Positions 4,045 through 39,920 are shown, numbered from the stretch's first letter. The stretch: 64,000 nt of DNA from an uncultured Clostridia bacterium (GCA_944349895.1 CALVNQ010000001.1:145461-209460); one strand, 5' to 3'. Translations and numbers: made by a program. Notes: a model not told the origin generated them from the sequence alone.

Positions 4045-7000
4045 ATGACAAAAACAATATCTTTACTTACAAAAATTTCTTTGATCATATTTGCATTAAT
4101 AATGCCTTTTGCATTATTTGATATTATGCCAATTAAAAATTCATTAAAAGCAGACACGGTATATGATGAGTATTCAAATTCTGTGTCTATAACAAATTCA
4201 AGTTTTAATAGCACTTCCAGTGTGTATTCTAAAGGAGATGTAACTGGCTGGACAAGGAAATGGAAAAATACCGGTGCGACAACAATGATAATTGACGTCA
4301 CAGACAAATTCAGCGATTATATGTCTTCAGAATATTTTTTAAAAGAAAATCCTGGGAAAAAGGGATATGACAACAAAATAATGATGATAAATTCGGCTTC
4401 CTCATCTCCGAATGCAACAGGATACAATGATGAGGCAAAAAGTGAAGGATATATCTCAAACACTATAAGTTTGTCTGCTAATTCATACTATCAATTCCAA
4501 GTTTCAATGAAAACCACTTCTTTTACAGATTCATCAGAATTTGGATCGATATATATTTCAGGTTTAGTCGATGAAAATGGACAAAGCGTTGAACTTGCAA
4601 GCGAGAAAAAGAGTTCCTCAACGTGGCAAACATATTACTTTTACATTTCGACAGCAAACACAACACAAACAATAACAATTGATTTATGGCTTGGAACCGA
4701 TGAATTGCCATCTCCTGGAGCAGTATTTTTTGATGATGTAATTGGCATACAACTATCAGAAAATGCTTATTACAACAATATGGAACAAAGACAATCTGAA
4801 GGCAAAGAGTTTGTTTCTGTGCAACTAGAAGATAGAAATATTATTGATACAACTTCGCTTAATTTTGATTTTGAAAAATCAACAGACGATTCTTTGAATA
4901 ATTTAGTTGATTGGAATAAAACAAACTGTTCTGCAAATGCGCATGCCATGATTTTGGATATGAATGAAGGCAATTTTAAAAATATCACAACATTTACCTA
5001 CCCTGGAACAGATTTAAGTTATGAGAACACAAAATCAATGGTTCTTTGGTCTACAAATGATGGTTATGTATCAACACAATCTTTACCTTTTGAAATAAAA
5101 TCTCACGGTCTTTACAAGCTTACAATGTATGTTAAAACAGCAGATTTGTCAAAAGGTGCATTCACGGTCTCTTTAAATGAAACATCTAAAATAAAAGAAG
5201 AATTTGAATATCTTGAAAACTACACATTGAAATCAGCGACTTCATCATCAATAACAAGCAATTCTACAAATAATTTTATAAATGGTTATACCGAATTAAC
5301 ATTTTATATACAGGGCCATAATAGATATGATTCGGAATTAGAATTACAATTAAACTTAGGAAGCGAAAGTAATTTAGCTAAAGGAGCCGTTGTTATCGAT
5401 AATATAACCCTAGAATTAGTAAGCTCTGAAAATTTCAAAACAGATGGGAATTTACTTGAATTAACCACTTTAACCACAGACATTACAGAAACTATTGCTA
5501 ACGGTCAATTTAACAAATCAGAAAATGGAGACAATAAATTAAATTATCCTTTAATACCTGCAAATTGGGAAATTTCACAATCATCTTCGGCATGGAAAAA
5601 AGAAATTGGAATTATAAACATTTATAACGATTACTTTAATTCTTATTCTAACACATATAATTATTATTGGGCTGAAGGTTTATCAAATCCAGGTTCACCG
5701 AATAAATATGGATCAACAAATGATGTTAATAATATCTTAATGATTTATAATCAAAAACAAGATTATCAGTCAATAAGTTCAACAAGCTTCGAGATAGCTA
5801 AGAACACCTATAAAAAACTAAGTTTTAGTTTTAAAACTTATGGTGAAAATGCAAGCATTAACGTTAAATTAATCGACGAAGATGGATTTACAATATTAAA
5901 CGATAAAGCAATTTTTTCTAGTGAATGGTCAGTATATGAATGTGTAATTAATTCTGGTGAATCAACAAAAAATTTACAATTAGTTATTGAATTAGGAACT
6001 CAAGAAGAAAAAGTTTCGGGATATGTTTTTATAGATTATGTTGAATTAGTAGACAGTGATGAAGAATCTTTCCAATCATCAACAACTCAAATTGATTTGT
6101 CAGGTTTTATGCTAAATTTAGATCCAAATAACGAGATAACTAACACAATATCCACTTCCATAGCTTTTTCTGGAACACATGAGTCTGGTAGCAATGCTAA
6201 TGGTGGGATAATAAAAGGTGCAAATAATGACTCTTATTATTTTATTGATAAAAATGGCGAAGCACAATCAATTGATGATGGTTCATTAATCACAAACGTT
6301 TTGGTTATTGAAACAAACACAATTTCAACATATAAGTTAACATCTAATTTCTCTTTAAATCTTACTAGCGGGAGTTATTATAAATTATCTTTCAGGTTAT
6401 TAACATCATTCCCTAGCTATACAGGTTCACACATACACAATGGAAAAGAGACCGATTCTAAATTCGGAGTTAAAATTGGATTGAGTAATTATTCCTTGAT
6501 AGAAGGATTAATTTCAAATGAAGGATGGAAAGAATTCACAATTTTCTTTAGTGCAAGTGAAGATTTAGAATCAAACTTTATTGTGAGTTTAGTATCAGAT
6601 TGCTTGTCAACAACGGGCTATGCTTATGTTACAGATATAAAATGGGAAGAAAGTGATTCTGACTCATACAATTCAGCAAAAAATAATGATAATTTTGGCA
6701 AAACAATATTTACCACCACATTAGATGCTTCAGATGAAGAAGATGATGAAGATTCTGCTGACACTAATGAAAATCAACAATCTCCATCAACAGATAACAC
6801 AACATGGTTGCTTGTCCCTTCTTTGATCATGGGTTTAGCTTTAATAATTGCAATAGTTGGATTTAGTTTAAGACACATTAAAGTGAAGAAGTTTGACAAA
6901 AAGACAAAAGAAAATTATGACAGGGAACAAAGTCTCCATGCAGACATTTTAATGAACGAAGCAAAGGATATTCAAAAATCAGAAATTGAATCTTTAAAAG

Positions 7001-7254
7001 AAAAAATTAATGAACTTTCTAAAGAATTAGAAGAACTTGAAAATAAAAATAAAGAAACGGTTGCTTTATCAAGAAAAGAAGGGAAAGTAACCAAAGACAT
7101 TGAAAAACAATTTAAATCTTATGCTCAAAAAAGGAATTCTTTACAAAAAACAATTGAAGAATATAACGAACATTTAACATATGTAGAAAGCTCTGATTAC
7201 CTTTTATCCATTCAAAAAAAATTAATTTCTAATAAAGAAAATAATAAAAAATAA
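4045..7254 (+). CDS. Large surface protein: signal/anchor, four repeated beta-sandwich (CBM-like) modules, acidic linker, C-terminal TM helix and cytoplasmic coiled-coil tail
   Basis: The 1069-aa protein has a hydrophobic N-terminus (ISLIIFALIMPFALF). Four modules each end in a similar strand pair: GAVFFDDVIGIQL, GAVVIDNITLELV, GYVFIDYVELVD, GYAYVTDIKWEE. A TM helix WLLVPSLIMGLALIIAIVGFSL (6805-6870) is followed by RHIKVKKFDKK and 127 aa of K/E-rich heptad-like sequence. Confidence 0.6.
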   Translation: MTKTISLLTKISLIIFALIMPFALFDIMPIKNSLKADTVYDEYSNSVSITNSSFNSTSSVYSKGDVTGWTRKWKNTGATTMIIDVTDKFSDYMSSEYFLKENPGKKGYDNKIMMINSASSSPNATGYNDEAKSEGYISNTISLSANSYYQFQVSMKTTSFTDSSEFGSIYISGLVDENGQSVELASEKKSSSTWQTYYFYISTANTTQTITIDLWLGTDELPSPGAVFFDDVIGIQLSENAYYNNMEQRQSEGKEFVSVQLEDRNIIDTTSLNFDFEKSTDDSLNNLVDWNKTNCSANAHAMILDMNEGNFKNITTFTYPGTDLSYENTKSMVLWSTNDGYVSTQSLPFEIKSHGLYKLTMYVKTADLSKGAFTVSLNETSKIKEEFEYLENYTLKSATSSSITSNSTNNFINGYTELTFYIQGHNRYDSELELQLNLGSESNLAKGAVVIDNITLELVSSENFKTDGNLLELTTLTTDITETIANGQFNKSENGDNKLNYPLIPANWEISQSSSAWKKEIGIINIYNDYFNSYSNTYNYYWAEGLSNPGSPNKYGSTNDVNNILMIYNQKQDYQSISSTSFEIAKNTYKKLSFSFKTYGENASINVKLIDEDGFTILNDKAIFSSEWSVYECVINSGESTKNLQLVIELGTQEEKVSGYVFIDYVELVDSDEESFQSSTTQIDLSGFMLNLDPNNEITNTISTSIAFSGTHESGSNANGGIIKGANNDSYYFIDKNGEAQSIDDGSLITNVLVIETNTISTYKLTSNFSLNLTSGSYYKLSFRLLTSFPSYTGSHIHNGKETDSKFGVKIGLSNYSLIEGLISNEGWKEFTIFFSASEDLESNFIVSLVSDCLSTTGYAYVTDIKWEESDSDSYNSAKNNDNFGKTIFTTTLDASDEEDDEDSADTNENQQSPSTDNTTWLLVPSLIMGLALIIAIVGFSLRHIKVKKFDKKTKENYDREQSLHADILMNEAKDIQKSEIESLKEKINELSKELEELENKNKETVALSRKEGKVTKDIEKQFKSYAQKRNSLQKTIEEYNEHLTYVESSDYLLSIQKKLISNKENNKK

Positions 7255-31909: not shown

Positions 31910-32320
31910 CTATTTTTTCTCTAATAAATTAGCGCTAATTTTATCATAAGCTTGACTTGCCTTGGCCATTATTTCGGCATTTTCATCTGAAACTTTTACA
32001 TTAATATTTTTCATACCTCTGTCATAACCGTTAGCCAAAAACTGTGCCAAAGCTAATGAATATAAAGGCAGTTCTTTATTTTTTAAATCAATTTCGGCAA
32101 ACTCTCTAAAAATTTTACCGAAATCATCTTTCACCACTTTGTTTGTTGTTCCTAAATATGCACTTGTTTTCATATCTACCAAATGACATATAGCAGAATC
32201 GCGACCATCTTTCATAACTAATATGCTCTGCCCTAATGCATTAGGTCTCGAAACATAAAGTAAATCTTCCAACAAATCATCATTAAAATCCACACGTTTT
32301 AAATCCTCATAAATACTCAT
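31910..32320 (-). CDS. Hypothetical cytoplasmic protein with its own promoter, flanking the phage-derived operon
   Basis: I place the start at MSIYEDLKRV (32320), with AGGAGG at 32330-32325. The longer ORF-track start lies upstream of the predicted -10 element. I recognise no motif. Confidence 0.5.
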   Translation of the reverse strand: MSIYEDLKRVDFNDDLLEDLLYVSRPNALGQSILVMKDGRDSAICHLVDMKTSAYLGTTNKVVKDDFGKIFREFAEIDLKNKELPLYSLALAQFLANGYDRGMKNINVKVSDENAEIMAKASQAYDKISANLLEKK

Positions 32321-32340
32321 ATTGCCTCCTACATAAGGAT

Positions 32341-32369
32341 ATATTACCATAAAATGGTAAAATTGTCAA
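32341..32369 (-). promoter_or_regulatory. Consensus-like sigma-A promoter for 31910-32320
   Basis: On the minus strand: TTGACA (32369-32364), a 17-nt spacer, then TAATAT (32346-32341). Confidence 0.65.
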
Positions 32370-32370
32370 T

Positions 32371-32397
32371 AGAAAAAAGAGGGTTATTCGCCCTCTT
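32371..32397 (-). terminator. Intrinsic terminator at the end of the phage-derived operon
   Basis: On the minus strand, AAGAGGG pairs with CCCTCTT with the holin TAA stop codon in the loop (32386-32384), followed by UUUUUU (32378-32373). Confidence 0.7.
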
Positions 32398-32644
32398 TTT
32401 CATCGCTCGAATCATCATAATCTGTTGTAATTTCAATTTCTTCGTTTTTATCTTTTGTTGAAGCAGGCAATGTCACCACACCAAACACCACAAGAAGCCC
32501 AGCAACAGACATAACAATATCGGTGACAAGTTTTTCCTCAATTTCAAAACCAAAAGCTCTGCCAAGCGCACCTATGAGTATAACCAAAGCACTTGCTAAA
32601 GCTGTCCAAAAACTATACGAGCGAATCAGATTTTTTATCTTCAT
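32384..32644 (-). CDS. Phage holin, two-TM (phiLC3/LL-H-like family)
   Basis: The protein MKIKNLIRSYSFWTALASALVILIGALGRAFG...VAGLLVVFGVVTL is followed by an acidic tail. A strong RBS (AAAGGAGG) lies before the ATG at 32644. Confidence 0.7.
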   Translation of the reverse strand: MKIKNLIRSYSFWTALASALVILIGALGRAFGFEIEEKLVTDIVMSVAGLLVVFGVVTLPASTKDKNEEIEITTDYDDSSDEKEGE

Positions 32645-32867
32645 TTTTTTTCCTCCTTTTAGGAGTAACAACTTCTTTTAAATATTCAACATCTTCTTTG
32701 ATTTGATCTATGACGCCGATATGATTGGTAAGATTTTCAATGGTTTTTTGATATTTTTCTTCTCTTTTTTTACTATCTTTTAACTGATAACAAAATAAAG
32801 CGACAAACAAAACAGCAAAAATACCATTGCTAATAATCACACTAACAATTTCTTGCCAAACAGCCAT
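32613..32867 (-). CDS. BhlA/UviB-family holin-like protein
   Basis: The protein MAVWQEIVSVIISNGIFAVLFVALFCYQLKDSKKREEKY carries the FAVLF...SK.RE.K pattern I recall from B. subtilis BhlA. The ATG at 32867 lies 1 nt after the upstream stop. Confidence 0.65.
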   Translation of the reverse strand: MAVWQEIVSVIISNGIFAVLFVALFCYQLKDSKKREEKYQKTIENLTNHIGVIDQIKEDVEYLKEVVTPKRRKKNEDKKSDSLV

Positions 32868-32868
32868 A

Positions 32869-33156
32869 TTATAATTCTCGAACAAGTTTATCGTAGAAAA
32901 TGCCCAACATTCCTCTTAATTGTCCATTAGTCTCAAGAAAACTTAAAGCAACTTCTTTATCAAAATTTTTTAAAAAATTCAAGGTAACATTATAGATATG
33001 TAATTGCTCATTAAATAAATCTGAAGAAACTAGATTATTTTCATCACCGCTGTCATTTTTTTTAATTTGGTTAATTAAACTATTCATTTCAATTTTCTCT
33101 CCTCTTAAAGAAAGTCTTTTTAAAAAAGATGAAGAACATCTATCAATCAAAATCAT
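32869..33156 (-). CDS. Hypothetical phage-module protein
   Basis: The 95-aa ORF has an ATGA overlap with the upstream 490-aa gene. Confidence 0.45.
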   Translation of the reverse strand: MILIDRCSSSFLKRLSLRGEKIEMNSLINQIKKNDSGDENNLVSSDLFNEQLHIYNVTLNFLKNFDKEVALSFLETNGQLRGMLGIFYDKLVREL

Positions 33157-34625
33157 AAAAATACCTTAAATGAGATTTCAGGACAAGAAAGCAAAACTGA
33201 GCCACTATCTGAGATAAAAGAAATTGAAAAGTTTTTACCGAAAATATTTGTTCTAAATCTTTGAGTCAAATTGGATAAAGCAATATCAAAAGAAAAGTTA
33301 TCACCCTCAGATGAAATAATGATCTTCCCTACAAATCCAGGTTTAATTATAATTTCTGAAATTCTCTTATCTTTAAAAGCATAACCAAAATCGGTATTGA
33401 CCGATTGCCAAACTTTTTTAAGTGGGGCACCAAAAAAACAACCGTCCTGAGTAAGCTCACCAATACAGTTCTTTTTATCCCCTCTAAAAATAGCACATAA
33501 TTTGTTTAATTGAGGGGTTTGTAAAATAATCATATCCGCGACATCGACCCCTCTTAAAATATCAAAAGTGTTTTCTGACAAATCATAAATCAAAACGGCA
33601 TTATTAACAAACTGTCCGCTTTCGACACCTATAGCATAAGAATCATTAGCGTTCAATTTACAAGCTAGGAAATATTTATTTTTAAAACAAACAGCTTTAC
33701 AATCACTATTATTTTGAGAAACAATTTTATCAATAAATGGTACTTCAATTTTAGAAACTGAATTGCCATTAAGTTTAAATAATCCGTCATCGCTCAAAAA
33801 GATAATAACATCTCCATTTTTTGCAATAGAATTTGGATAAATATAAGAATTAGACTCGTAGATATTATCAACAGAGATTTTAGAATCTGCACTATATAAA
33901 GAAAGTTTACTGATACCAAATTCACGAAAAATAAACAAATCATCTTCCAATGAAATGAGTTTTGTTAAGCCACCTCTTACACCAGGTATTTCAATAGTGG
34001 AAACATTGTCATCATTCCATATATTAATCCGACTTTCACTATACATAAGTTCATTATTAGCACCCACTGTAATCAAGAAAAAATATGGGCCATGCCAACA
34101 AGCAGAAACAAATTTGGGAATATTATCATAAACTTGAGTTCCTGAGCCATTTAAACCAACAGTTTGGTCGGAAGCAGAAGCTAAAAACAAAGTATCGTTA
34201 TCCGAATTAATTCTAAACGGAGCGGCATTAGGTATCTGAGTAAAAGTTTTTGTAGAATCATACATAAACTTATTGCCTAGGGTATTAAAGAAAAACATTT
34301 TAAGATTCTGATCCAAATAAACTATATAATATTTATCAATATTTTCTAAATTATCAAATAGAACAAAAAACCAAAGGGCCTTTATTTCTGTTGCAGTAAC
34401 ATCAAAATCTTGCATAACATTTGATTGAGATAAAACAGGCAATTGAAGTTTTTTGAAGCCAAACCCTTGAGTTAAAGCACCTGAAGAAATAGAAAAATTG
34501 TAAAAACTTTTTGTTTCATTAGCATCAATAATTGAATCGTCACCTTTTTTAAGTTGATTAAACTTATCAAATCTAAAATTAATTATTTTCGAATTTTTAG
34601 TTTGAAAATTCTTTTTAAGGAACAT
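33153..34625 (-). CDS. Phage structural protein with repeated blade-like strands (candidate tail tube, nozzle or stabilisation protein)
   Basis: The 490-aa protein has recurring hydrophobic strand motifs every ~40-50 aa: LFLASASD, YFFLITVG, LFIFREFG, VIIFLSDDG, YFLACKL, AVLIYDL, LCAIFRG. Its position corresponds to tubular protein B of podoviruses. Confidence 0.45.
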   Translation of the reverse strand: MFLKKNFQTKNSKIINFRFDKFNQLKKGDDSIIDANETKSFYNFSISSGALTQGFGFKKLQLPVLSQSNVMQDFDVTATEIKALWFFVLFDNLENIDKYYIVYLDQNLKMFFFNTLGNKFMYDSTKTFTQIPNAAPFRINSDNDTLFLASASDQTVGLNGSGTQVYDNIPKFVSACWHGPYFFLITVGANNELMYSESRINIWNDDNVSTIEIPGVRGGLTKLISLEDDLFIFREFGISKLSLYSADSKISVDNIYESNSYIYPNSIAKNGDVIIFLSDDGLFKLNGNSVSKIEVPFIDKIVSQNNSDCKAVCFKNKYFLACKLNANDSYAIGVESGQFVNNAVLIYDLSENTFDILRGVDVADMIILQTPQLNKLCAIFRGDKKNCIGELTQDGCFFGAPLKKVWQSVNTDFGYAFKDKRISEIIIKPGFVGKIIISSEGDNFSFDIALSNLTQRFRTNIFGKNFSISFISDSGSVLLSCPEISFKVFL

Positions 34626-34637
34626 AAATACCTCCTC

Positions 34638-35192
34638 CTAAAATTTCCAAGGACGTTTTGGAAGTTTAATGAGTGATTTTTTACGCATAAATGATACTAA
34701 AGAATCTTTAAATCTATTTTCATACAAAAGAGCCTCATCAGATTGGCCTTGAAAGAAATAAAATTCTCTAACAACGCCATAAACCAAAACTCTATCTGGG
34801 AAAATCACTGAAATTTCATCGCCGAACTCTAAAGGCTCGGGAATGGTTTGATAAACGACATCGACTTGATCCTGTGAATTCAATTTAATGTGGTCAACAG
34901 ATTGTAAATAAGGAACATTTCTACCAGAATGGTTTTTAACTGAAATGATCCCACTGATAGGTTTAGAAAAACTGTCAAAATAAATTAAGCCGTTATCAGA
35001 AGAAACTGTTTCTTCGACTAAAATAGGAATATATTCAGTAACAATCTCTTCATAAGCCAAATTAGCACAAGAAAGTAAAATGTCAAGTTTAGCATTTTGA
35101 ATATCGTCTCCGTTTTCGGTTCCAACGACATCAACGAGATCATCGAAACCTAATATTTTGCAGCTTAACTTAATTATATTATTAATATTCAT
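34638..35192 (-). CDS. Candidate head-tail adaptor or connector protein
   Basis: The 184-aa ORF has the size and position of podovirus adaptor (tubular protein A) genes. It overlaps the upstream gene by 1 nt (TAATG). Confidence 0.35.
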   Translation of the reverse strand: MNINNIIKLSCKILGFDDLVDVVGTENGDDIQNAKLDILLSCANLAYEEIVTEYIPILVEETVSSDNGLIYFDSFSKPISGIISVKNHSGRNVPYLQSVDHIKLNSQDQVDVVYQTIPEPLEFGDEISVIFPDRVLVYGVVREFYFFQGQSDEALLYENRFKDSLVSFMRKKSLIKLPKRPWKF

Positions 35193-35503
35193 TAGAGCAC
35201 CTCTTTTATTTGATCAATAGCATGATTTAACAAATTTTTTTTCAATTTATCATTATAAGAATCCATTTCATCTATTAGTTTATCAAAATTTTGTTTTCTG
35301 GTTTTTCTGGCCAAAAAAACAGTCCGTTCATCCAAACAATCAAAAGGCAAAGTGAGAGCGAACGTTGAATCTTTTTGAGAAGAATTATGTAACTCAAAAG
35401 TATGTTTAATGTTATTAAAAACCAAAAAATAATTTTCATCAATATCCCTTAATCTTTCAGTGATATAAAAAGGATCATTATCAATCAAAATTTGACTTGT
35501 CAT
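35192..35503 (-). CDS. Hypothetical phage-module protein
   Basis: I chose ATG at 35503 (MTSQILIDNDPFY), with AAAGGAG 5 nt upstream. Confidence 0.45.
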   Translation of the reverse strand: MTSQILIDNDPFYITERLRDIDENYFLVFNNIKHTFELHNSSQKDSTFALTLPFDCLDERTVFLARKTRKQNFDKLIDEMDSYNDKLKKNLLNHAIDQIKEVL

Positions 35504-35524
35504 AGTAACTCCTTTAAAAATCAA

Positions 35525-35541
35525 AGGGGCAAAAAGCCCCT
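35525..35541 (-). terminator. GC-rich hairpin just after the capsid gene (candidate partial terminator or attenuator)
   Basis: On the minus strand, AGGGGC UUUUU GCCCCU is followed by UUGAUUUUU. It lies 6 nt after the capsid stop codon. Confidence 0.5.
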
Positions 35542-35546
35542 ATTAA

Positions 35547-36782
35547 TTAAGCTCCTGTGTCATCTTCGCCAGTTGTAGTTGAAGAAGAACTATCGCCTGT
35601 ACTATTAGATAAGAAAGGATTAGTAACAGTAGATTTAATTCCACTGATTTTAGCCTGGCCATTAGGTTTATCACAAACAAGCTCAGCATATTTAACAAGA
35701 GTAGCATAGTAAGAAGGTAAATTAGCGTTTTGTCTTAAAATTTTACCATCTTCGCCTTCAATCCATTTCCAATCACAAAGTTCATGTATAACGAAGTCAT
35801 CAGTATTAAGCAAATACATAGTATCAGCATCAACAAATCTATCAGCTACCAAAGGTATACCATTGTAAGAAATAGCTTTGAATCCACCCTCAAGATTCAT
35901 AATATCAATATTAGATCTATAAGCAGTAAGATATTGTTGATAAGCTCTTCTTACAGCACTAGAACAAGCAATAAAGTTGATTTTAGAATCAGCATTTTCT
36001 TCAAGAAAATCAATAGCAGTTTGAATTAAGTTATCTGAAATTTCGGTTTCAGAAGACGACATATAAGGATTCATCCATTGATAATCAGCTCTTGTAAGGC
36101 CATACAAAGTTGTAGAATCAGAGAAAATAGCTCCCAAACCTGTAATTTCAAGATCTTTTGAATTTTGAACATACATGGTGTAAGATCCCGATGTAATGGT
36201 TAAAGATTTATCAATTTTAATAGTCTTATTAATTCTATCTACATACAAAATTTTAGCTCTTGAAAGAACTGGTAAACTTCTAGAATCAACAAAATCTATT
36301 AACATACCTTCAATAAGATTATTAACTTTATCACAAGTAATAACCCCATCAGAAACAGAAATTGCTTTTCCTAAAGCACCTGTTCCATCGCCATAAAGCA
36401 TTCTTCCAAGGTTAAAAGTACTTGCTTTAACAAGGCTCTCCATTTCATCAGAAAGCAAATTAACGAAAGCACCAACATTGTTAGCTGAAGCACGAATGGC
36501 TTTATCTGTGATTTCGATTTTACCATAAAGATTTTTTAAATCTGTTTTAAATTGAACATAATTATTCCCTGAAGCGTTAGGCAATTGAGTATTTTCGCCG
36601 CCGGCTCCGATACCACCGTTAATACCATAAGGAGCAAGTTTGATGACTTCTTTCCCCCAAACATCTTTATTAGTTCTTTTAATTTTGGTTAAGAGTGGGT
36701 TTGCTGCAACATTAAGTTGATTAGCGACAACTCCAAGATAAACGGTTTTAAGTGCGTTTTCAGCACTAGTTAAAGTAACCAT
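35547..36782 (-). CDS. Phage major capsid protein
   Basis: The 411-aa ORF follows the scaffold-like gene directly. AGGAGG lies 7 nt upstream of its start. The assignment rests mainly on gene order and size, plus my unverified impression that the sequence is HK97/P22-coat-like. The tail is S/T-rich. Confidence 0.65.
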   Translation of the reverse strand: MVTLTSAENALKTVYLGVVANQLNVAANPLLTKIKRTNKDVWGKEVIKLAPYGINGGIGAGGENTQLPNASGNNYVQFKTDLKNLYGKIEITDKAIRASANNVGAFVNLLSDEMESLVKASTFNLGRMLYGDGTGALGKAISVSDGVITCDKVNNLIEGMLIDFVDSRSLPVLSRAKILYVDRINKTIKIDKSLTITSGSYTMYVQNSKDLEITGLGAIFSDSTTLYGLTRADYQWMNPYMSSSETEISDNLIQTAIDFLEENADSKINFIACSSAVRRAYQQYLTAYRSNIDIMNLEGGFKAISYNGIPLVADRFVDADTMYLLNTDDFVIHELCDWKWIEGEDGKILRQNANLPSYYATLVKYAELVCDKPNGQAKISGIKSTVTNPFLSNSTGDSSSSTTTGEDDTGA

Positions 36783-36797
36783 AATAATTCCTCCTAA

Positions 36798-37415
36798 TTA
36801 ACTGAACAAATCTTCCACCAATTTTTTAGCCTCTGCGAGCGAAGAAGGGGTGACCGGTTTTTGTCCAGTCACTTTTTCCCCGTTATCGCGACAAATGACA
36901 AAAGGTGGTTGATTAGATTTTAGTTCTTTCATATAATTTTCAATGACATGATTTTTAAGTTCTTCGTCTTGAAAAACATATTTTTTAATAATAGGGTTAT
37001 CGAGTTTTGATTCTCCTGAAGCCAACTTATTAACTAACAATGATGCCCATAAGTTATCAAAATCAACCCTACCGCCCTGTTGGATGCTTAAATTTTTAAG
37101 CTCATCAGCAAAAGGACTTGCATCGCTTTGTCTAGAAAGGAACGAAGAAAGTTCATCATTGATAAAATTCTCATTGATGGTTGCTTTTTCGGTTTTATCT
37201 TTCTCAAGTTCGCTTAGCCTTTGACTTTTACGTGTAAATTCGGCTTCTAGAGCTTTATAAGCTTCGAAAAGCGCATCAGCAGATTTAAATTTGCCGAAAT
37301 TAACACCTAAGTTGTTTAAGGAGCCCCCCTCACTATCGGCACTTTTAACTAATGTTTCGTCAGAAACTGTTGCCTGTTCCTCGGTTGGTTGTTCCTTAAT
37401 TAAATTATCTTCCAT
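36798..37415 (-). CDS. Phage scaffolding-like protein
   Basis: The 205-aa acidic, helical protein (ALFEAYKALEAEFTRKSQRLSELEKDK) lies between the portal and capsid genes. Confidence 0.55.
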   Translation of the reverse strand: MEDNLIKEQPTEEQATVSDETLVKSADSEGGSLNNLGVNFGKFKSADALFEAYKALEAEFTRKSQRLSELEKDKTEKATINENFINDELSSFLSRQSDASPFADELKNLSIQQGGRVDFDNLWASLLVNKLASGESKLDNPIIKKYVFQDEELKNHVIENYMKELKSNQPPFVICRDNGEKVTGQKPVTPSSLAEAKKLVEDLFS

Positions 37416-37424
37416 AATAACCTC

Positions 37425-39296
37425 CTAATTTAATTCGTTAGACTTTTCAAGAAATTTTTTATGTTCTCTAATATGATTTAAAAATAAATCTTCCAATTTA
37501 GGATTAATTAGAGATTTTTCTTCAAAATCTCCTCCTAACATAAACGCGATATGTTTATCGATATGAAGTTCATGACTGTCTATTTCTAAAACTTTAACTG
37601 ATTTGCCATCTAACAATTTTAAATTTTCATTATCAGCTTTTTTAATATGAAGCTCACTTGTGTCTTGAGCATTTTCCCAAATACCAAAACCTAACATTTC
37701 CAAAGCTTTAACTTTCATTTTTTTACTCATACCGTCATTTTGATCATTTAACAAACCAGCTTCAATAAGATCAAACACCATTTGTCTGCGCTGAGCAAGG
37801 CTTTCGCCTAATTCATTTTGAGTTTCGAGTTCAATATCGTCACTTGAAATATCGCTAGAATTGAAGTAAAAAATTTCGACATCACCGTTATCTCCGACAA
37901 TTCTGGCAAGCCTAGGAATAATAGCATACTGCTTATATAATCTTAAAATCATTTGAGAAATATTTTTCACGCAAATCTTCATATTATCGGCTGAATTATT
38001 TAGTCTCAATTCATCTTGCTCAACCATTAATTGAAGAGCGACCCCAGAAATATTAGAAGACACATAATCAGTATCAAGGACCTCATTTACTCCACTAACA
38101 GATTTAAATTCATCTAAGAGATTTTTTTCTTCCTCGGCAAAACTAGAAGAAAGATTTTCTCCATTTAAATACTCAGGAGCATTAGCACCTTGCCTATAAA
38201 CTATAATTTTACCAGGGCACAATCCTTCGTCTTCAAGGTTTTCAATATCCACAGACCCATCTTCAACTTTTAGCACTCCCATGGTTAATCTGTTCATAAA
38301 TTCATGCTTGCGGTTTTTGACTGCATTATAAGCTCTTTGAACAGGTATTAACCTGTCAATAACACTAGCGCCCCAAAAAGAACCCACTTGATTAAGAGAA
38401 ACTTGCTTAATAAAAGGGAAATCCCTGGAATAATCTTTGCCGATAGCGAAAGGCAATTCTCCGTCATAGAAAAGATGATCTCCGACAACAATAGTAAGTC
38501 TGCCAAAAGGAAAATCCTTGGTAGGTTTTTCATATCTCTCAATAACGATAGCGCTATTGGCTTTCACGCCTTGACAAATTTTAGGCGCAGCAGAAGAGTA
38601 TCCCAGTCCCCCCAGGCCTACACTCGTTGAATCAAGAGAAAAGATATTAATATCTTCACCTAAGATATCAATATCATAGATGGATTTAATTTTATCAACA
38701 TCCATAGCTCTAGCGTGAATAATGCTTTGACAAGATTCTATATCTTCACAAGTGAAACTATCTGGATAAATTTCGAAAGGGGAACAAACTGTAATGTCGA
38801 CTTCACCACTTCTGACTTCCTCTCCGTTATCTTCTTTGGCAACAACTTGTCCTTGAGAAGGATCCCAAGAAATTTTATAAAAACTAGTCCCACAAATTTC
38901 GCTCCATTGCATAGCTTCAGTTAACTTTTTAGATAAATCCAACTTATTAGTAATGCTATCTAAGATTTTTTTAGAAACTTTAGAAGCGAAGACATCTCTC
39001 TCATCATTAGAAGCAGGCAAGACATTTGTTTTAGGTTTGATTTTACCGAGTTTAGCTAATCTAACGTCGACAATAGGTGCCACATGATTAAATATTTCTC
39101 TTTCTTGCCAAAAATATTGTTTATCTAGATCTTCAATTTCGCCAGCATAACCAATATCACAGAATTGATTTCCCATATAAAAATTAATATTCATGAGCCA
39201 TTGAGTTTCAAAAGGTTTTCTAGCTCTTTGGCGCTCAGCGAAATCTTCCTGTACAAATTTAACAATTTGTTCTTGTTGTTTAGTCATTTTTTTCAT
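37425..39296 (-). CDS. Phage portal protein
   Basis: The 623-aa protein has an N-terminal RKPFETQWLMNINFYMGNQF block typical of portal proteins. It lies upstream of the scaffold and capsid genes. Confidence 0.7.
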   Translation of the reverse strand: MKKMTKQQEQIVKFVQEDFAERQRARKPFETQWLMNINFYMGNQFCDIGYAGEIEDLDKQYFWQEREIFNHVAPIVDVRLAKLGKIKPKTNVLPASNDERDVFASKVSKKILDSITNKLDLSKKLTEAMQWSEICGTSFYKISWDPSQGQVVAKEDNGEEVRSGEVDITVCSPFEIYPDSFTCEDIESCQSIIHARAMDVDKIKSIYDIDILGEDINIFSLDSTSVGLGGLGYSSAAPKICQGVKANSAIVIERYEKPTKDFPFGRLTIVVGDHLFYDGELPFAIGKDYSRDFPFIKQVSLNQVGSFWGASVIDRLIPVQRAYNAVKNRKHEFMNRLTMGVLKVEDGSVDIENLEDEGLCPGKIIVYRQGANAPEYLNGENLSSSFAEEEKNLLDEFKSVSGVNEVLDTDYVSSNISGVALQLMVEQDELRLNNSADNMKICVKNISQMILRLYKQYAIIPRLARIVGDNGDVEIFYFNSSDISSDDIELETQNELGESLAQRRQMVFDLIEAGLLNDQNDGMSKKMKVKALEMLGFGIWENAQDTSELHIKKADNENLKLLDGKSVKVLEIDSHELHIDKHIAFMLGGDFEEKSLINPKLEDLFLNHIREHKKFLEKSNELN

Positions 39297-39514
39297 TTTG
39301 TCTCCTTTTTAATTTTAGGTCTTAACTTAAAATGTGAATTAGTTCCTTTAGGTACCTGTAACTTGGCGATTTCTTGATACATGCCTTTAAGGCAATCTTC
39401 ACAAAAAGCCAATTCTCTTTTAATCAAACCTTTAGTACTAAAAGAATAATCTGCTAAATTGTTACAACCAATGAAATCACATTTGGTCACTTTCGTACAT
39501 CTTTCGATTTGCAT
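39293..39514 (-). CDS. Small Cys-rich zinc-ribbon protein with a basic tail
   Basis: The 73-aa protein has Cys at positions 6, 12, 17, 38 and 41 and a KLRPKIKKETK tail. GAGGAGG lies upstream of its start, and it has an ATGA overlap with the portal gene. Confidence 0.5.
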   Translation of the reverse strand: MQIERCTKVTKCDFIGCNNLADYSFSTKGLIKRELAFCEDCLKGMYQEIAKLQVPKGTNSHFKLRPKIKKETK

Positions 39515-39803
39515 TATTTTCCTCCTCTTTTAAAAGTTGTAAAAGATGGTTTTTTTCTGCCTCAAGCTGCTCATCTGACATATTTTCTACCGAAAGAACA
39601 TTATAAAATTTTTCAAGCAAAATTTTCAAAGCTGAAAGATCTGGAGAATACTGTTTTTTCGTTACTTTTTTTTTAGCTAAAACTTCTTCCCCATTTTCTC
39701 CAATAGAGTACTCACAAATTTGTTCTTTAGTGACATAACCCAGAGCTTTTTTCAGCAAAGCTTTTTTCAATTTTTCTTCACTAAGTTCTTTCAATTTCCT
39801 CAC
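39477..39803 (-). CDS. Small helical protein, possibly terminase small subunit or HTH-like
   Basis: The 108-aa ORF is the first gene of the operon. The motif KKKVTKKQYSPDLSALKILLEKF resembles small-terminase or phage HTH proteins. The evidence is weak. Confidence 0.35.
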   Translation of the reverse strand: MRKLKELSEEKLKKALLKKALGYVTKEQICEYSIGENGEEVLAKKKVTKKQYSPDLSALKILLEKFYNVLSVENMSDEQLEAEKNHLLQLLKEEENNANRKMYESDQM

Positions 39804-39823
39804 CTCTTACAAAATTCAAAAGC

Positions 39824-39852
39824 ATTTTAATATTGAAAAAACCAGAAAGCAA
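39824..39852 (-). promoter_or_regulatory. Sigma-A-like promoter of the phage-derived operon
   Basis: On the minus strand: TTGCTT (39852-39847), a 17-nt spacer, then TAAAAT (39829-39824). Confidence 0.55.
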
Positions 39853-39920
39853 TAAAGAGTGCCGAAAAAATATTCACACATTTAAAATCTCAGAGTAAAA
39901 TGATAATGTAGAGGTTATAA

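Follow-up and report, generated by a model that had tools for sequence, protein, structure and literature searches.

A podovirus-derived operon fixed in the chromosomes of gut Clostridia, a candidate gene transfer agent-like system spread over at least two loci

Gene transfer agents (GTAs) were long held to be near-exclusive to Alphaproteobacteria. In the Gram-positive Bacillus subtilis, the myovirus-like element PBSX (∼28 kb) has a contractile tail and carries lysins and a repressor of its own. As a defective phage, PBSX packages DNA of its host and leaves the cell by lysis, and GTAs of the alphaproteobacterial RcGTA type use a small terminase subunit (TerS) without DNA specificity and are under host control (PMC12946183, PMC9662315 for RcGTA; PMC12946183 for PBSX). 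FpGTA of Faecalibacterium prausnitzii, called the first podovirus-like GTA, has a 10.5-kb operon for TerS, the large terminase subunit (TerL), portal, scaffold, capsid, and short-tail proteins and a second locus of 5.5 kb, and its ∼40-nm particles contain ∼8.5-9 kb of host DNA (PMC12946183, Nat Commun 2026). GTA-type packaging was also reported in other gut Firmicutes, among them metagenome-assembled genomes (MAGs) of Christensenellaceae (4.1 kb in HGM11616 and 6.3 kb in QANA01), with no gene cluster named for the latter (PMC12946183). Here we analyze a podovirus-type virion operon, hereafter the module, in a 64,000-nucleotide stretch of DNA from an uncultured Clostridia bacterium (GCA_944349895.1, CALVNQ010000001.1:145461-209460; the window). 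Judged by its genes and their conservation, the module is probably part of a podovirus-derived, chromosomally fixed, and vertically inherited GTA-like DNA-packaging particle system (a "viriform") that occupies at least two loci.

A virion operon and its separate terminase locus

A first-pass annotation of the window had described a self-contained run of eleven minus-strand open reading frames (ORFs) from 39803 down to 32384, and all eleven were verified at these positions (Table 1). Most of their junctions are, as it stated, overlaps or gaps of up to ∼25 nt; the exceptions are genes 1 and 2, which overlap by 38 nt, and a 43-nt spacer with a conserved hairpin that follows the capsid gene. The G+C content of the operon is ∼30-35%, and its surroundings are alike. 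Matches to Pfam, PHROG, and NCBIfam models bear out the portal and capsid identities, and the two holin assignments are likewise supported. The capsid protein scores 280 bits against NF033394 (cut-off, 80 bits) and belongs to a family for which a library of 1.8 billion proteins contains 455 representative clusters (E<=1e-30). With the nozzle and TerS-like protein considered below, the operon encodes a TerS-like protein, a zinc-ribbon protein, a portal, a capsid, a nozzle, and two holins.

The 490-amino acid (aa) product of gene 8 had been noted as a blade-repeat protein. Its AlphaFold2 (AF2) model, built with 35 homologues, has a predicted local distance difference test (pLDDT) score of 88.9 and a predicted template modeling (pTM) score of 0.89. 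When this model was compared with the Protein Data Bank (PDB) by Foldseek, it matched the tail of Pa223 (9nwi_Y, E 2.5e-19, TM score 0.74) and VP1 (8zkk_O, TM 0.74) as well as GP4, SU10, P22 gp10 (8eap_D, E 1.8e-12, TM 0.58-0.60), T7 gp12, and Pam1, all with a probability of 1.00. The predicted structure thereby confirms this protein as a podovirus nozzle or tail hub.

Gene 1 had been proposed to be terminase-small or helix-turn-helix-like. The former is favored by PHROG 309 (terminase small subunit): of 15 family members, 12 match it (best E 7.8e-8), though solely within profile positions ∼190-243 of 319. Profile comparison found no recognizable DNA-binding domain in this protein, a parallel to the GTA TerS proteins lacking such a domain that PMC12946183 describes. 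The PDB sequences matched by the gene 1 profile are designed repeat proteins, and these matches are attributed to low complexity. In the compact versions of the module at loci L060 and L136, gene 1 is directly 3' of the TerL gene.

A search with family terminases (tblastn) detected no TerL inside the window. The window shares, however, a 12.9-kb stretch of 100% identity with contig BRZ_AM NODE_221 (110,304 bp), and the search beyond the window that had been recommended found an intact 479-aa TerL on this contig, 7,960 nt beyond window position 1 (the left edge), on the strand of the operon and ∼40 kb from it. The Walker A (GGNRSGKS), Walker B (VWFDEE), and nuclease motifs of this protein are intact, and it is 63-68% identical to other TerLs of the family. 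The self-contained appearance of the operon is thus a consequence of the window boundary, and the earlier view that it lacks a packaging ATPase and might carry cargo other than DNA does not hold.

TerL is preceded by a 166-aa sigma-70-region-4/DUF1492 gene of the phage late-activator type that matches two phage transcriptional activator families (PHROG 36, 1.9e-10; PHROG 248, 1.8e-8) and, on the opposite strand, by a gene for a 267-aa membrane protein that has an SH3_3 domain in some orthologues. This trio of activator, membrane protein, and TerL genes is kept in all 23-24 TerL-carrying loci, whether or not they adjoin the module. In one large clade, a Terminase_6N/6C protein of ∼480 aa is encoded 5' of gene 1, either adjacent to it (L060) or with one large surface-protein gene between them (L049). 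TerL is adjacent to the module in more than 20 loci, stands alone among housekeeping genes in other genomes, and lies ∼30 kb from the module on a 271-kb metagenomic contig. In basal lineages, the activator, membrane protein, and TerL genes and the genes from gene 1 to the holins are contiguous over ∼10-11 kb. Because the trio is directly 5' of gene 1 in these relatives, we conclude that the ancestral order was activator, membrane protein, TerL, gene 1, and so on to the holins, with a cut between TerL and gene 1 in the window lineage. A minimal 8.1-kb form (L136, 2378-10485), found in a more distant lineage between lipoate/biotin ligase and NTP-transferase genes, consists of TerL, gene 1, portal, the scaffold-like gene, capsid, genes 6-8, and the BhlA holin and is without the activator, the zinc-ribbon gene, and the second holin.

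A contiguous set of terminase, integrase, and lysin genes immediately outside the window had been named as a refuting finding, and this case did not arise. What lies there is TerL, the sigma-like regulator, and the membrane protein, ∼40 kb away and separated from the operon by housekeeping genes. The claim that the window itself is without a terminase or integrase was sustained by tblastn and by Pfam searches of ∼30 other window ORFs, including every one big enough for either protein, which returned housekeeping genes only (mreB, ppx, RNase J, iPGM, gyrA/B, murG, subtilase, ABC transporters, groESL, murI, gpr, rpsT, oligopeptidase F, IleRS, and topA). No integrase, replication, or lysogeny genes were found in the window, in 10 kb beyond each of its ends, or in the related loci examined, and the 10 kb past its right edge contain housekeeping genes only. 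No repressor, primase gene, or att repeats were found at the loci examined; the window contains no tRNA genes, and, in agreement with the first-pass annotation, no att-like direct repeats surround the operon. The module has no means of replication, integration, or self-transfer, and an element split into loci 30-40 kb apart would not be excised and packaged as a unit. Taken together, the two loci constitute what their sequences predict to be a complete set for procapsid assembly, DNA packaging, closure of the portal by a short tail, and membrane permeabilization.

Several observations concern the surroundings of TerL. A 97-aa serine-recombinase fragment with only the N-terminal resolvase domain (L098, 17397-17690, on BRZ_AM NODE_221) lies ∼6 kb left of the window and ∼300 nt 5' of the sigma-like gene that precedes TerL, and it may be a trace left by the rearrangement in which the element was split. 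Many genomes have a large, variable secreted or surface protein 3' of TerL: one of 786 aa with a signal peptide in the window species (L098, 20871 onward), one of 833 aa with M26-N, GLUG, and InlB B-repeats in L049 (3351-5852), and one of 827 aa with DUF285 and BspA-type leucine-rich repeats in L078 (11794-14277). These proteins may be cargo, adhesins that serve the particle, or neighbors with no relation to it. A position of TerL beside groES-groEL, as in other split genomes, was considered and rejected, as this stretch of the window holds gyrA, gyrB, murG, and subtilase genes and TerL is on the other side of the window.

Conservation, descent, and selection

With the capsid protein as query, a scan in which every GTDB species was represented by a single genome, and which returns carriers only, yielded 76 loci at 47-78% identity. 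No two of these loci come from the same species, and all are from gut MAGs. The carriers are labelled Clostridia, Christensenella, Catabacter, Onthoplasma, or Caccopulliclostridium (Christensenellales-type). Wherever a locus is long enough to show it, genes 1-8 and both holin genes share the same order and orientation. The module occupies a matching chromosomal neighborhood across clades, and its reading frames are intact in 76 species despite saturated synonymous divergence. The pairwise identities of its portal or capsid proteins follow those of neighboring host proteins, with Spearman coefficients of 0.87 and 0.85 against the ABC ATPase, 0.80 against the neighboring membrane protein, and 0.91 against gpr.

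Selection was assessed from ratios of nonsynonymous to synonymous substitution rates (dN/dS), taken as Nei-Gojobori medians over 20 informative pairs of tblastn fragments, the window's own subclade included. These values are 0.05-0.18 in 10 of the 11 operon genes (Table 1) and are indistinguishable from those of the neighbors murI (0.10), gpr (0.05), and the ABC genes (0.06-0.09). The nozzle has a dN/dS of 0.06, yet its cross-species identity is just 21-49%. Among strain-level variants of the window species (∼99% identical), changes are mostly synonymous. The comparison of this locus across relatives that had been called for shows retained synteny and dN/dS values like those of housekeeping neighbors, which gives good support to one of the readings offered at the outset, a domesticated GTA-like module. 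Based on these sequence comparisons, the module is an old element that has been vertically inherited under strong selection.

The flanking ABC transporter was considered as part of the element and rejected, as it is missing from the TerL-adjacent clade. Among the contigs that IMG/VR classes as viral, 35 (L100-L134; 4-65 kb, or 4-19 kb bar two longer ones) carry a family capsid gene at 45-69% identity, and the module was seen in four of five such contigs compared gene by gene (L100, L109, L112, and L113). A near-identical arrangement on the genome or metagenome contigs L083 and L136 has host-gene flanks, and the IMG/VR entries look like fragments of the domesticated element catalogued as viruses.

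Features of the operon and its surroundings

Table 1. Positions of the operon genes and expression signals in the window, with the grounds for each assignment and dN/dS
Feature	Position	Strand	Grounds or remarks	dN/dS
Gene 1, short helical TerS-like protein	39477..39803	minus	105 aa from TTG 39794, or 108 aa from GTG	0.07
Gene 2, 73-aa four-cysteine zinc-ribbon protein	39293..39514	minus		0.06
Gene 3, portal, 623 aa, P22-like	37425..39296	minus	Pfam PF16510 (P22_portal) 1.3e-18; PHROG 156 3.6e-41	0.06
Gene 4, acidic 205-aa scaffold-like protein	36798..37415	minus	position and composition alone	0.18
Gene 5, major capsid protein, 411 aa	35547..36782	minus	NCBIfam NF033394 capsid_maj_Podo 1.7e-83; PHROG 14242 3.6e-55	0.05
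Gene 6, conserved 103-aa protein	35192..35503	minus		0.11
Gene 7, 184-aa protein in adaptor position	34638..35192	minus	position and size alone	0.12
Gene 8, podovirus tail nozzle/hub, 490 aa	33153..34625	minus	predicted beta-propeller and beta-sandwich	0.06
Gene 9, 95 aa, retained C-terminal domain of ∼300-aa DUF7934 protein	32869..33156	minus		∼0.28
Gene 10, BhlA/UviB-type holin-like protein	32613..32885	minus	Pfam PF10960 2.7e-15	0.08
Gene 11, phage holin with two transmembrane segments	32384..32671	minus	Pfam Phage_holin_1 6.8e-5; PHROG 297 2e-9	0.07
Operon promoter	39824..39864	minus	upstream box CGGCA (family consensus TGGCA), 7 nt, -35 TTGCTT, 17 nt, -10 TAAAAT; -35 to -10 = 39852-39824	
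Post-capsid G+C-rich hairpin and T-run	35525..35541	minus	directly 3' of capsid gene	
Intrinsic operon terminator	32371..32400	minus	holin stop codon TAA (32386-32384) inside loop	

The zinc-ribbon protein has invariant cysteines at positions 12, 17, 38, and 41 (n=26 orthologues) and no PDB or family match. The acidic 205-aa gene is found between the portal and capsid genes in all loci, and its product has no family match. Gene 6, which is present in all loci and has six invariant residues, gave no match when its profile was compared with PDB sequences; its position suggests that it is possibly a head completion or connector protein. Gene 7 is colinear in more than 60 loci; its profile has no PDB match, and its single-sequence AF2 model has a pLDDT of only 35.6.

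Gene 9 was related to DUF7934 by profile-profile comparison only: its family aligns with the DUF7934 family (hhalign, 92.7%, E 4.3e-7) at template positions 225-292 of 296, the match in Pfam is weak, and direct BLASTP returned nothing. Full-length DUF7934 proteins are encoded between nozzle and holin in the TerL-adjacent clade (L049, L083, and others). At this same place, the most divergent lineages have three to four extra genes of 100-570 aa (L109, 13573-16861; L076, 7447-11133), none with a family match, which are candidates for distal tail, fiber, or ejection proteins that were lost in the window lineage. The reduction or loss of DUF7934 and the presence of the extra genes in basal lineages suggest that the distal tail region shrank stepwise.

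As had been reported, the sequence contains the promoter and the terminator, the latter with the stop codon of the holin inside its loop (Table 1). A pattern of this promoter (T[GT][GAT]CA-N6-8-TTG-N18-23-TAnWWT) precedes gene 1 in 24 of the 29 split-type loci, where shuffled sequences are expected to give 0.23. The TGGCA box suggested a sigma-54 promoter, which was rejected, as TTG lies one base too far from the box, the -12 element shows no conservation of its GC, and the -10 TAnAAT is kept. The terminator folds at -14.5 kcal/mol (z -3.08), and none of 200 shuffles was equally stable. At the site equivalent to the post-capsid hairpin, 57 of 74 loci have a hairpin that folds at -7 kcal/mol or better and precedes a T-run, and its stem sequences differ and covary between clades (GGGGC/GCCCC, AAAGGCA/TGCCTTT, and GTGGCAGAC/GTCTGCCAT). 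This hairpin is probably an attenuator or mRNA stabilizer that determines how much capsid protein is made relative to tail proteins.

A 146-aa ORF (31910-32350, minus strand) that lies between rpsT and the operon terminator has a strong promoter (TTGACA-17-TAATAT with TG; 32369-32341) and a terminator (31898-31867) to itself. No homologue occurs across the 76 loci, no family matches this ORF, and its strain-level dN/dS is 0.73; by these sequence features it is a lineage-specific insertion outside the unit. Elsewhere in the window, a 1069-aa ORF (4045-7254, plus strand) has only a weak C-terminal coiled-coil match in Pfam and is kept in other contigs of the species. Just past topA, to the right of the window, are dprA and a comM-type Mg-chelatase gene (L093, 7405-10023), DNA-uptake and recombination genes of the kind that GTA recipients need in other systems.

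Proposed role and comparison with known systems

A GTA-like particle system made from these genes would work as follows. A host signal would switch on the activator-like gene, and TerL and the operon would then be expressed, with the post-capsid hairpin keeping capsid above tail proteins. Procapsids would form on the portal with the help of the acidic scaffold-like protein, and TerL and a TerS-like protein that has no DNA-binding domain would load host DNA of any sequence into the heads. The adaptor-sized protein and the nozzle would seal the portal, and the two holins would free the particles, either with a lysin from elsewhere or by themselves.

The same particle could have been domesticated for a role other than gene transfer, such as PBSX-like killing or altruistic lysis, the release of DNA or cell contents (extracellular DNA, biofilm), or holin-driven export in which the capsid is secondary. 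In line with such a role, no small genes are more conserved than those of the two holins, one of which is of the BhlA/UviB type that has been linked to the release of bacteriocins; the distal tail has undergone a progressive loss of genes and no fiber or receptor-binding protein was found, which argues against efficient adsorption and injection; and PBSX packages DNA yet serves as a bacteriocin (PMC12946183). We nevertheless consider it unlikely, since TerL, the TerS-like protein, the portal, and the nozzle are strongly selected and would be needless for pure lysis or export, and since PBSX kills by means of a contractile tail, which is not encoded here.

The other two explanations, both of them raised by the first-pass annotation, are far harder to reconcile with what was found. 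A horizontally mobile, helper-dependent satellite, of the phage-inducible chromosomal island (PICI) or capsid-forming PICI type, would borrow fibers, lysin, and other functions. The small size (8-11 kb) and the combination of its own capsid and packaging genes with no fiber or endolysin would suit it, capsid-forming PICIs being composed in the same way, and IMG/VR lists carrier fragments as viral. This is nonetheless highly improbable, as there is no integrase, att repeat, replication or primase gene, or repressor at any locus examined, the chromosomal neighborhood is constant, the module has diverged together with the flanking genes, and in many genomes its two loci lie too far apart to be excised as a unit. 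For a decaying prophage remnant, one could cite the truncated gene 9, the separation of TerL from the rest, and the truncated serine-recombinase fragment beside the TerL locus. Both a recent truncation and an old drifting relic are ruled out, however, by the shared synteny and purifying selection in 76 species: 10 of the 11 genes have dN/dS values equal to those of housekeeping neighbors, frames have stayed intact at saturated synonymous divergence, and the promoter, hairpin, and translational coupling are conserved. We regard a remnant as the least probable explanation of all, with next to no weight.

A number of points also weigh against a GTA-like particle system. The promoter motif of the operon was found 5' of TerL in just 2 of 32 loci (shuffles expect 0.3), and with no shared motif there, the co-regulation of the two loci is something we infer. 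Neither the window nor the loci examined yielded an endolysin, tail fiber, or receptor-binding protein, DUF7934 is cut to 95 aa here and gone from the largest clade, and the tail tip may thus be incomplete in the window lineage. Many of the pairs behind the dN/dS values have a dS near 1 (near saturation), and the pairs are non-independent. The locus search yields positives only. The module is a candidate for the packaging seen in Christensenellaceae, and this link is circumstantial; if those data apply, the particles would be expected to take ∼4-9 kb of DNA.

With these points in view, we still favor a GTA-like particle system, and we put forward a broader proposal with more reserve: that the module is an independently domesticated, order-wide, podovirus-type GTA of Christensenellales-type gut Clostridia, the third Gram-positive GTA-like lineage after PBSX and FpGTA and the source of the 4-6 kb packaging in Christensenellaceae, and that its loci split and its distal tail was lost stepwise while the head, packaging, and nozzle genes stayed under strong selection. 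We would put this somewhat short of an even chance. If the GTA-like reading holds, there is a concrete candidate gene set for Christensenellaceae packaging that is 8-11 kb long, easily recognized, and present in at least 76 species and in thousands of protein clusters from metagenomes. It would then become testable how much chromosomal DNA Christensenellales mobilize in the gut, how recipients are found by a minimal particle with a short tail and no visible fibers, and how a domesticated phage works after its genes have been scattered. A practical problem is that the virus catalogue IMG/VR lists such chromosomal fragments as viruses.

A literature search found one directly relevant paper, that on FpGTA (PMC12946183), and none besides it in the library searched describes the module. 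Among podoviruses, the tail machines of Pa223, VP1, GP4, P22 (gp10), and T7 (gp12) share the nozzle fold of gene 8 (TM 0.58-0.74) at an identity of only 8-13%, and the order portal, scaffold, capsid, small protein, adaptor-sized protein, and nozzle is common to podoviruses and the module. P22-like features are the P22-type portal (PF16510) and the gp10-type tail hub; as for a gp4-type adaptor, gene 7 is adaptor-like in size and position and has no detectable match. Unlike podoviruses, the module is chromosomal, non-replicative, and vertically inherited, and Pfam and PHROG searches of the operon proteins recognized neither a gp9-type tailspike nor a gp26-type needle nor any ejection protein. 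Of the deposited phages, Arthrobacter Jasmine/Adat, Microbacterium Shocker, and Cellulosimicrobium DS1 come closest and are still very distant in sequence (identities of 22% for portal, 25-27% for capsid, and 28-32% for TerL). They share the order of TerL, then portal, one gene, and capsid, and they differ from the module in being complete actinobacterial phages of ∼45 kb with a tail spike, endolysins, and regulators.

PBSX resembles the module in being Gram-positive and chromosomally fixed, whereas the module has no contractile tail, lysins, or repressor. RcGTA is like the module in its vertical descent, its purifying selection, its multi-locus organization, and the absence of replication and integration genes (PMC12946183, PMC9662315). 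The two differ in that RcGTA, a siphovirus-like type, has head spikes, fibers, and a long tail and keeps TerL inside the structural cluster, and the module has a podovirus-type nozzle, another capsid family, and a host of another phylum.

The likeness to FpGTA extends to the host, a Gram-positive gut anaerobe, to a podovirus-like operon of ∼10 kb and the use of more than one locus, to a TerS without a DNA-binding domain, and to the lack of integrase and replication genes; FpGTA is near-universal in its host clade. Their components differ. The FpGTA capsid (RCH50849.1) is annotated as N4-gp56 family (Supplementary Data 2, PMC12946183), whereas NF033394 is the only NCBIfam match of the module capsid at E<=0.01, with no match to N4-gp56. 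Between the portal and capsid genes, FpGTA has a Prp-like protein and the module its acidic 205-aa protein, and TerS precedes TerL in FpGTA, whereas TerL precedes the TerS-like gene in the module. The second locus of FpGTA encodes a baseplate, fiber, receptor-binding protein, holin, and endolysin; that of the module holds TerL and a regulator, with the holins in the main operon, and no genes of an FpGTA-type second operon were found in the 64-kb window or ∼20 kb of flanks. Because the capsid family differs, with FpGTA being set apart by its annotations, the module was apparently domesticated independently of FpGTA. GTAs are recognized (PMC9662315, PMC12946183) by particles that carry quasi-random host DNA, with the element's genes not enriched in it, by the delivery of this DNA to recipient cells, and by three features that are seen in the sequences of the module: the absence of propagation genes, chromosomal genes of phage derivation, and vertical descent with purifying selection.

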